Positions 43,021 through 44,470 of a DNA stretch of 64,000 nucleotides are shown one piece after another; positions within the stretch are counted from its first letter, which is position 1, and each line of letters begins with the position of its first letter. Source of the DNA: Escherichia phage vB_EQ1. The translations under genes were made by a program, and so were the position numbers. The stretch lies in sequence record PQ516281; one strand, given 5' to 3'. Below the pieces are notes generated by a model, which was not told where the DNA came from, searched no databases, and was given only the letters and a program-made list of their open reading frames with translations.

Positions 43021-43569
43021 TTAACGAGCCCATTTGATGATTTCTGTAATCAAATCATTACGTTCGCTTGCATTAAATCCTATAACTTTGTTAGCACCAT
43101 CATGATTAAGTAATTGATACGTTTGGATTTTGTTATGAATTGCAAACTCTTCAAAATGTGAAATGACTGTATTAAAACCGAATGAAGACAAAGTAATAAG
43201 GTCGTCTTCAAAACTTTCAGTCATTTCGTTACGTGTTAAAATAATTGTGAACACATCATGGTTTTGGCAAAGACGAATATAATCCTGTTCATAAACGTCA
43301 AGAACCGAATCCGCATCTTGTCGAATACGTCCATAAACCCAGTTACTAATATATCCACGGTCTAACAGATAAATCTTAGTAGGGTCTAAATAATTCAACA
43401 TCGTTTCGAAACAGCCAACTTCATTTCGAGACTTAACATCGAAACGTCCATCAACTGTTCGTTTAGGGAAATCAATCTTTACATATCTTTCACTAATTTC
43501 CATTATGTCATTAATGAAAGTTGTTTTACCAGCATTATCTGGGCCATCTACTAAAATAATTTTAGCCAT
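43021..43569 (-). CDS. P-loop kinase of the NMP-kinase fold (182 aa)
   Basis: Walker A GPDNAGKTT at residues 9-17; small single-domain kinase size; substrate unknown. Confidence 0.6.
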   Translation of the reverse strand: MAKIILVDGPDNAGKTTFINDIMEISERYVKIDFPKRTVDGRFDVKSRNEVGCFETMLNYLDPTKIYLLDRGYISNWVYGRIRQDADSVLDVYEQDYIRLCQNHDVFTIILTRNEMTESFEDDLITLSSFGFNTVISHFEEFAIHNKIQTYQLLNHDGANKVIGFNASERNDLITEIIKWAR

Positions 43570-43570
43570 T

Positions 43571-44470
43571 TTATTCCTCGATTACGACATCTTCGTATTT
43601 AGGTATATTATACGGCGAAGAAATTAAAGCGTTAAAGTAGATGAACTCACCAAGACCTGGATGGAATACTTCTTCAGGATTTTCGAAATATTGAATCTTC
43701 GGACGTCCTTTAAGAATTTGATAGTACTCAGTTTTAGTTGGATTAAAAATTCGAATCAGCGCTTCTTCAGGATACTTATTTCTGTCGAAACTATTATTTG
43801 GATCAGTTATATAAAGCGGTTGACCTAATTGAATTGCGCATTCAACAACTTGTTCAAAACGATAGCATGGGTCACTAATTCGAAATGGATGAAAAATACC
43901 ATCTAGATGAATAGGAGCCAAATCACCTACAAGACGCTGCATGACGGAAGGACGTATAACTTTCTGCGTTACGATAATCTTATTACCATCTGCACCTGCG
44001 TTAACCAGCACTTCTTTTTGACGTTCATTCAACACAGTAGTTTGAAGTGAACGATTAACCGACAACATGTCGGTTTTTAAGAATTCGTCAATATAAAAAC
44101 GTGGTTTATTAGGGTCTGCAGTGATATTGAAATTGAATTCTACGTCAAAAGCGCCATCATATCCAGTGATATCTGTGATTAGAAAATCACAATCATAATA
44201 AGCAATTAATGAATCAACCACAAATTCATTTTCAGACCAGAAATATTTACGAGTGTTATACGCGTTATCTTTATACCATAATGGAACAAACTTAAATTCT
44301 GGGAAAAGACGTTCACATTCTTTAATATCAGATGCATTACGTGGATATGTAATCACATCGCCTGGATTAGCACGGTGCAAATGAAGTTGGAAGTTGCCAT
44401 CCTTAAGGATAGCATACTGTCCAGTTTCATAAGACCGCATACTCAAAATAGGTACGCGGAAAATAGCCAT
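43571..44470 (-). CDS. Hypothetical protein (299 aa) at the beta-gt position; candidate transferase
   Basis: ORF with no recognisable motif by eye; occupies the slot of T4 beta-gt but does not resemble it. Confidence 0.5.
   Translation of the reverse strand: MAIFRVPILSMRSYETGQYAILKDGNFQLHLHRANPGDVITYPRNASDIKECERLFPEFKFVPLWYKDNAYNTRKYFWSENEFVVDSLIAYYDCDFLITDITGYDGAFDVEFNFNITADPNKPRFYIDEFLKTDMLSVNRSLQTTVLNERQKEVLVNAGADGNKIIVTQKVIRPSVMQRLVGDLAPIHLDGIFHPFRISDPCYRFEQVVECAIQLGQPLYITDPNNSFDRNKYPEEALIRIFNPTKTEYYQILKGRPKIQYFENPEEVFHPGLGEFIYFNALISSPYNIPKYEDVVIEE

Follow-up and report, generated by a model that had tools for sequence, protein, structure and literature searches.

A probable glycosyltransferase and kinase pair of the arabinosyl-5-hydroxycytosine DNA pathway in a Mosigvirus-type phage

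We have analyzed a 64,000-nucleotide stretch of the genome of Escherichia phage vB_EQ1 (sequence record PQ516281), hereafter the window, and within it two adjacent genes on the minus strand that lie next to uvsX. One encodes a P-loop nucleotide kinase of 182 amino acids (aa) (43021..43569), and the other a 299-aa protein, GT1 (43571..44470), each with an ATG start. We conclude that these are probably the kinase and the transferase of a three-gene core, completed by an adjacent homolog of thymidylate synthase (TS), in the pathway that substitutes arabinosyl-5-hydroxycytosine for every cytosine of the phage DNA. In this scheme GT1 would move the first, base-proximal arabinofuranose from UDP-arabinofuranose (UDP-Araf) to the 5-hydroxyl group of 5-hydroxycytosine. 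The 182-aa protein would be an active deoxynucleoside monophosphate (dNMP) kinase of the thymidylate-kinase superfamily that acts on a modified deoxycytidylate provided by its neighbors, most simply converting 5-hydroxydeoxycytidine monophosphate (5-hydroxy-dCMP) to the diphosphate (5-hydroxy-dCDP). The modified nucleotide would then be passed to nucleoside diphosphate kinase and the phage polymerase, leaving dCMP behind, and a separately encoded second glycosyltransferase, GT2, would add a second arabinose on the DNA. Both genes are already catalogued in the published pathway and the system itself is known; the main addition made here is the contiguity of the three genes.

Conservation and linkage of the three genes

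An earlier note, made from the sequence of the window alone, had described a Walker-A kinase (GPDNAGKTT) of 182 aa and a 299-aa protein beside uvsX. Both open reading frames (ORFs) are exactly as described, and they are real genes. Using tblastn we find homologs of the kinase in 343 phage records and of GT1 in 348, with 54 protein clusters for the kinase in a profile search of metagenomes and 138 clusters in a metagenome database for GT1. Many alignment columns are invariant in both families, and both proteins give confident AlphaFold2 models, with a predicted local distance difference test score (pLDDT) of 87.7 for the kinase, and of 95.2 for GT1 (predicted template-modeling score 0.90, from a 50-sequence alignment). 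The numbers of records by host genus are nearly equal for kinase and GT1: 176 and 176 for Escherichia, 57 and 57 for Acinetobacter, 15 and 15 for Shigella, and 25 and 26 for Klebsiella.

The three genes are packed tightly in the window. The stop codon of the TS homolog overlaps the start of the GT1 gene (TAATG), one base separates the GT1 stop codon from the ATG of the kinase, and the three genes are translationally coupled. We examined the corresponding loci of phages JS98, Thanatos-1, KLB31, Virsaitis27 and RL38J1 and of eight metagenomic contigs (13 loci, four of the metagenomic ones lying in large contigs of 122, 169, 217 and 356 kb), together with that of Serratia phage PS2. Leaving PS2 aside, every carrier of a GT1 homolog also has a TS homolog with the sequence RSxN (D169N), and in every locus except that of RL38J1 a kinase homolog is directly adjacent (hidden Markov model E value of 1e-24 or better). 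The genes are found in three different orders, TS-GT1-kinase, TS-kinase-GT1 and kinase-TS-GT1. The proteins of the eight metagenomic phages are 27-31% (kinase) and 37-47% (GT1) identical to those of the window, and in the most distant loci the identities are 34% for TS, 37% for GT1 and 27% for the kinase. The contiguity has thus survived rearrangement, which indicates that TS, GT1 and kinase form a functional unit.

Two loci depart from this pattern. In Rhizobium phage RL38J1 the place of the kinase is taken by a P-loop protein, gp214 (locus L004, 11792-12427), that aligns with the kinase family in hhalign at 43% probability over the N-terminal half only. Neither the DR nor the FEDD motif is present in gp214, although the adjoining glycosyltransferase and TS are clear homologs. 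Either gp214 has replaced the kinase without being its ortholog or its substrate has changed, and we do not claim orthology. In PS2 (locus L005, 4217-7925), gene 42 is of the 5-hydroxymethylcytosine (hmC) type (RSND), and genes for beta-gt and a beta-glucosyl-HMC alpha-glucosyltransferase stand beside a GT1-like gene from which the invariant motifs of the GT1 family have disappeared; no kinase gene is present within the locus examined. The PS2 gene is perhaps vestigial, or perhaps a transferase that has taken on another role, and the surplus of GT1 records over those of the kinase appears to come partly from distant GT1-like matches of this kind.

The adjacent 5-hydroxy-dCMP synthase and the published pathway

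The third gene of the core (44470..45186, minus strand) encodes a 238-aa TS/gene-42 homolog (PF00303, E value 2.4e-15), the ortholog of RB69 gp48 and a 5-hydroxy-dCMP synthase. It contains an MRSQN...D motif (MRSQNCAVVMQLD, compared with MRSNDVVFGFRND in T4 gp42), with Asn at the position of ThyA D169 and Asp at that of N177. These two changes (D169N and N177D) are the signature of flavin-dependent 5-hydroxy-dCMP synthases, and the protein is near-identical to the crystallized enzyme of phage HY126 (PDB 9iqc/9ir2, E value 4.5e-162). RB69 gp48 has been shown experimentally to make 5-hydroxy-dCMP from dCMP with flavin and O2 (PMC13326640). The earlier note had started from the premise of hmC DNA, and this does not survive, given the two substitutions and the arabinosyl-5-hydroxycytosine that Mosigvirus DNA carries.

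Arabinose was found in RB69 DNA by Thomas et al. 2018 (PMC6024577), who suggested that the sugar donor is likely supplied by a novel gene module lying between the polymerase gene and uvsX. The chemistry was corrected by Lee et al. 2026 (PMC13326640), who report that RB69 DNA contains mono- and di-arabinosyl-5-hydroxycytosine, ether-linked at C5, standing in for cytosine in virion DNA. An independent study found 5-ara-dC and 5-ara-ara-dC in another Mosigvirus. The HY126 proteins AfhE and AfhF, counterparts of which are encoded upstream, produce UDP-Araf by a route that starts from ribulose-5-phosphate, with AfhF converting arabinose-1,5-bisphosphate to arabinose-1-phosphate. Table 1 of Lee et al. 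lists RB69 gp45 as 'nucleotide kinase' and gp46:47 as 'arabinosyltransferase 1', and the available portion of that paper does not discuss gp45 beyond its table entry (PMC13326640). Those authors cannot say whether the first arabinose is added to the mononucleotide or to DNA. In the literature outside He et al. 2026 and Mahler et al. 2025, either of which may assign the kinase, we found no test of the kinase substrate; our statements below on published work have the same coverage.

The kinase and GT1 are the orthologs of RB69 gp45 and gp46:47 and of gp78 and gp79 of Acinetobacter phage DLP3 (PMC13326640), and these pairs do not differ in substance from ours. Our kinase shares 98.9% identity with the product of the RB69 gene. 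The RB69 GenBank record splits the glycosyltransferase into two ORFs through a sequencing error, whereas the gene in the window is intact at 299 aa.

In distant metagenomic phages a Flavodoxin_2-family (flavin-reductase-like) gene is found near, and upstream of, the D169N TS homolog (L008, 4739-5293; L009, 4715-5275; L012, 4215-4739), and it is directly upstream in L008 and L009. The start of L011 also holds such a gene. A gene of this kind in that position agrees with a hydroxylase that depends on flavin and must be supplied with it in reduced form; there is none in the Mosigvirus cluster.

The 299-aa protein is predicted to have a GT-B fold

The earlier note saw no obvious motif in the 299-aa protein and suggested that it may be a non-canonical transferase. 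The first observation is borne out, since neither it nor 49 relatives (50 members in all) match any glycosyltransferase family in Pfam, including Glycos_transf_1, Glyco_trans_4 and the like that define GT-B/GT4-like membership by sequence. A profile search of the PDB with the protein revealed no sequence relative of known structure, and hhalign of the family against GT2 and against T4 alpha-glucosyltransferase (alpha-GT) gave probabilities below 1%. The AlphaFold2 model consists of two Rossmann-like domains with a cleft between them, the architecture of GT-B (GT4-like) glycosyltransferases. With no sequence link, only a structure-based search was informative, so the assignment as a glycosyltransferase rests on structure. 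We infer that the protein is a compact, sequence-orphan GT-B glycosyltransferase, and the suggestion of a non-canonical transferase accords with this predicted fold.

Strongly conserved residues are located in an N-terminal loop (S10 M11 R12 S13, Y19, and K23 D24 G25 N26) and in the C-terminal motifs FxPFRxxD, TDPN and HPG. Other Mosigvirus copies of GT1 match the window protein at 99-100% identity, and TH1_063 of Shewanella phage Thanatos-1 matches it at 47.5%. In RL38J1 the protein gp215 is a clear homolog (hhalign 99.3%) and keeps most of the N-terminal loop, and the glycosyltransferase of that phage attaches a hexose rather than arabinose to the same base. Retention of the loop in a hexose-adding enzyme would fit recognition of the acceptor by the N-terminal domain.

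Compared with the T4 beta- and alpha-glucosyltransferases, GT1 shows no detectable sequence similarity (hhalign probability 0.2%). It is smaller than these enzymes, which have 351-400 aa, and its putative acceptor is a ring hydroxyl on 5-hydroxycytosine instead of a hydroxymethyl group, with UDP-Araf as putative donor instead of UDP-glucose. It is also more acidic. The GT1 family is uniformly acidic, with a median isoelectric point (pI) of 5.1 and a net charge of -11, where T4 beta-GT has a pI of 9.05 and T4 alpha-GT a pI of 6.1. We considered net charge as a guide to whether the acceptor is DNA or a nucleotide and set it aside as a hint only, as the pI of T4 alpha-GT lies slightly on the acid side as well.

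The 182-aa protein is a kinase of the thymidylate-kinase fold

The kinase begins MAKIILVDGPDNAGKTTF, with the Walker A sequence GPDNAGKTT at residues 9-17. Its predicted structure has the thymidylate-kinase fold. An alignment with the human and E. coli thymidylate kinases (TMPK) places its GxDxxGK[ST]T P-loop, FPKR and DR sequences opposite GVDRAGKST, FPER and D96-R97 of the human enzyme. The invariant residues of the family include K15, T16, D70, R71 and R113, and there is a family-specific invariant acidic motif comprising F120, D122, D123, L124 and I125. Invariance of the catalytic residues across the family indicates an active enzyme under selection, as judged from the alignment.

The kinase differs in several respects from thymidylate kinases (PF02223/TIGR00041; vaccinia 2v54, Thermus 5x7j). 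Some 20 fewer residues separate FPxR from the stacking Phe, the acidic motif is its own, and it is present only in phages that have a 5-hydroxy-dCMP synthase. Arg76 of human TMPK reads O4 of thymine. The aligned stretch of the kinase contains no conserved arginine.

Assignment of function to the kinase and transferase

The kinase might be a general pyrimidine dNMP kinase, acting on dTMP, dUMP or dCMP to raise the supply of dNTPs and bearing no specific relationship to the modification. The fold would agree with this, as would the label 'thymidylate kinase' that the protein has in PHROG and GenBank and the weak matches to TIGR00041 made by 23 of 25 family members. The window kinase, however, scores 16.4 bits on TIGR00041 against a dTMP-kinase cut-off of 83.25 bits, and the match covers the P-loop only. 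It has no match to PF02223 (cut-off 27 bits), on which a distant relative in locus L013 reaches 31.4 bits, so that the curated cut-offs for dTMP kinases are not reached. The absence of the thymine-reading arginine also speaks against a general role. The distribution of the kinase tracks TS homologs of the 5-hydroxycytosine type only; it is found neither at the T4 locus nor beside the PS2 GT1-like gene, and in the loci examined it always adjoins the hydroxylase or GT1. We therefore regard a general dNMP kinase as very unlikely. The kinase shows no similarity to T4 gp1-type dNMP kinases (PF21448, PDB 1dek), nor is it a gene that T-even phages have at this site. An ordinary dTMP kinase or a gp1 ortholog is ruled out by the scores on these families, by the phages in which the gene occurs and by the gene map of T4. 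The earlier note would have abandoned its proposal had the protein been the standard dNMP or dTMP kinase of T-even phages, and it is not. What it shares with T4 gp1 (RB69 gp159) is the activation of a modified dCMP by a phage-encoded kinase, an activity that for the window kinase is proposed.

Phosphorylation of the modified base within DNA, in the manner of the 5-hydroxymethyldeoxyuridine (5-hmdU) DNA kinases, or of a sugar intermediate, is scarcely credible. The earlier note had drawn the comparison with 5-hmdU DNA kinases, and these too are small P-loop kinases encoded within base-hypermodification clusters of phages; indeed hhalign aligns our kinase with one of them, M6 gp54, at 80.7% probability, confined to the half containing the P-loop. 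Yet the kinase has no match to PF18748, on which M6 gp54, as the positive control, scores 65.1 bits, and M6 gp54 lacks a DR motif at the position aligned to that of the kinase; on this evidence we ruled out the identity. Moreover the kinase family is acidic (pI 4.7-5.8), the 5-hmdU DNA kinases create a phosphate leaving group on DNA while the end product here is an O-glycoside, an ether-linked sugar without phosphate, and phosphorylation of the sugar is already assigned to AfhE and AfhF.

Three published observations, and the lack of a biochemical test of either protein in the literature covered, weigh against the functions we propose. The gp1-type kinase gp159 of RB69 phosphorylates 5-hydroxy-dCMP to the diphosphate in vitro, and gp159 and gp48 suffice to place 5-hydroxycytosine in E. 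coli DNA, in the available account (PMC13326640); a second kinase for that step therefore looks redundant. According to the same account, purified DLP3 glycosyltransferases tested singly did not arabinosylate 5-hydroxycytosine DNA with either UDP-Araf or UDP-arabinopyranose (UDP-Arap), and the set tested is inferred, rather than stated, to include the GT1 ortholog gp79. Lastly, the Thanatos homolog of GT1 has been reported as a UDP-xylose pyrophosphorylase (PMC12838424). Purified, His-tagged TH1_063 (L002, 4995-5897) gave UDP-xylose from UTP and xylose-1-phosphate, and left plasmid DNA, dCMP, dCTP and cytosine unmodified. That GT1 is a UDP-pentose pyrophosphorylase and not a transferase is nevertheless highly improbable. 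Its predicted fold is GT-B and not that of a nucleotidyltransferase, the AfhE homolog of the cluster already carries an NTP_transferase domain with an activity demonstrated for AfhE, and all the acceptors offered to TH1_063 lacked a 5-hydroxyl group. The sole control described was one without enzyme, which would be blind to a co-purified host uridylyltransferase, and the UDP-xylose may have been the product of such an enzyme.

The first two observations could also be understood if the order of events were different. GT1 might arabinosylate free 5-hydroxy-dCMP, with the kinase phosphorylating the bulky arabinosyl-5-hydroxy-dCMP, too large for the gp1-type kinase; the polymerase would then bring the first sugar into DNA, and only the second would be added on the DNA. 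This would account for the retention of a second kinase despite gp159 and for the failure of single transferases on 5-hydroxycytosine DNA, and it agrees with the way in which hydroxylase, GT1 and kinase are kept side by side in all 13 loci (the kinase-like gene of RL38J1 being marginal), with the translational coupling of their genes and with the acidity of the GT1 family relative to T4 beta-GT. The host glycosylases Nth and Nei act on 5-hydroxycytosine in DNA, and never exposing that base to them would be an advantage. On the other hand, the glycosylation of phage DNA is post-replicative, and occurs on DNA, in every characterized case, and 5-hydroxy-dC enters DNA without any sugar. The charge argument is weakened by T4 alpha-GT, which works on DNA. 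The DLP3 result was 'data not shown' and may reflect an absent partner protein, as with gp76 and gp77, and no pool of arabinosyl-dCMP or arabinosyl-dCTP is reported in the literature covered. We therefore consider addition of the first sugar before replication unlikely. If true, DNA would be built directly from arabinosyl-5-hydroxy-dCTP, the kinase would be a dedicated glycosyl-nucleotide kinase, and the conserved trio of hydroxylase, transferase and kinase would be explained. We know of no earlier case of a sugar-bearing dNTP as a natural substrate for replication.

The conserved three-gene core sharpens the question of the substrate of the kinase and of when the first sugar is added, at the nucleotide or on DNA. 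The genes of the pathway help phage DNA to resist restriction enzymes, the Brig1 DNA glycosylase and type I CRISPR-Cas. The subject is relevant to the use of Mosigvirus phages in therapy and to the enzymatic synthesis of glycosylated DNA.

Organization of the gene cluster

The GT1 and kinase genes are the final two of a tightly packed minus-strand block that begins with the DNA polymerase. As transcribed, the order is polymerase, SIS isomerase, 561-aa fusion, HAD phosphatase, U32 protein, 79-aa ORF, TS homolog, GT1 and kinase. The family-B DNA polymerase (49611..52322) is followed by a 211-aa SIS-domain protein (48935..49570; PF01380, 39.5 bits; RB69 gp55), assigned from the literature as a putative arabinose-5-phosphate isomerase. 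The 561-aa protein (47068..48753), a homolog of RB69 gp52:53 and HY126 AfhE, is assigned likewise as a sugar kinase and UDP-arabinose pyrophosphorylase, and in Pfam has an N-terminal NTP_transferase domain and a C-terminal APH-like domain. The 133-aa HAD-type phosphatase (46682..47083; phrog_1238) is the homolog of RB69 gp51 and HY126 AfhF, again by literature assignment. Beyond the block, uvsX (41750..42922, minus strand) is 98 bp downstream of the kinase in the direction of transcription, followed by gp40 and gp41.

In T4 the order here is 42 - beta-gt - segA - uvsX - 40 - 41. The earlier note had placed both genes in the beta-gt slot, which holds for the 299-aa gene; relative to T4 the kinase is extra. 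Escherichia phage MRostami-2023e (OQ031495) matches the region at 100% identity, and PhAPEC2 (98.5%), JS09 and many other Mosigvirus (RB69-like) phages match it at 98-98.5%; by sequence the window belongs to a Mosigvirus.

GT2 (366 aa; 21651..22751, minus strand) is the putative counterpart of RB69 gp3 and the HY126 glycosyltransferase (PDB 9iqz). The assignment was made by length and position: the chain in PDB 9iqz is also 366 aa, and the ORF is flanked by rIIA-like and topoisomerase genes, the location described for Mosigvirus in the literature.

A scan of the cluster for promoters and terminators gave no more sites than were found in shuffled sequence. The gap between the kinase and uvsX (42923-43020, minus strand) contains aaaTGCTGTA, 12 nucleotides, and then TATAAT, elements that stand ahead of uvsX and resemble a T4 middle (MotA-dependent) promoter. 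A short GGCTC/GAGCC hairpin lies across the stop codon of the kinase.

The U32 protein and the 79-aa ORF

Between the phosphatase and the TS homolog lie genes for a 386-aa protein of the peptidase-U32 family (45464..46624, minus strand; PF01136, 42.2 bits; RB69 gp50) and for a 79-aa protein of unknown function (45228..45467, minus strand; phrog_8601). Lee et al. 2026 name the U32 protein 'sugar or heterocycle reductase' (PMC13326640), and in a literature search we found nothing linking the phage U32 protein to O2-independent hydroxylases. In each of the 221 phage records with a U32 gene the identity is 80% or more, compared with only 40-72% for GT1 and the kinase in those genera. The U32 gene is missing from JS98 and from all phages of Acinetobacter, a strict aerobe, that have the rest of the cluster.

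In three relatives, Klebsiella phage KLB31, Erwinia phage Virsaitis27 and Shewanella phage Thanatos-1, the ORF immediately following the U32 gene is that of a type II chorismate mutase, with a score on Pfam CM_2 that passes the threshold; the loci concerned are L002 (Thanatos-1, 6462-7852), L017 (3492-5002) and L018 (3483-4894). The 79-aa ORF sits where those relatives encode the mutase. It has no match to CM_2, shares only 14-22% identity with the mutases of these three phages, and is either a replacement for the mutase or a version diverged past recognition. Among U32 proteins, UbiU/UbiV, TrhP and RlhA are hydroxylases that depend on prephenate and not on O2, and the product of RlhA is 5-hydroxycytidine in rRNA. 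Given these known hydroxylases and the adjoining chorismate mutase, the U32 protein and the mutase may together provide 5-hydroxycytosine under anaerobic conditions, and by analogy the phage U32 protein is a candidate O2-independent cytosine hydroxylase.

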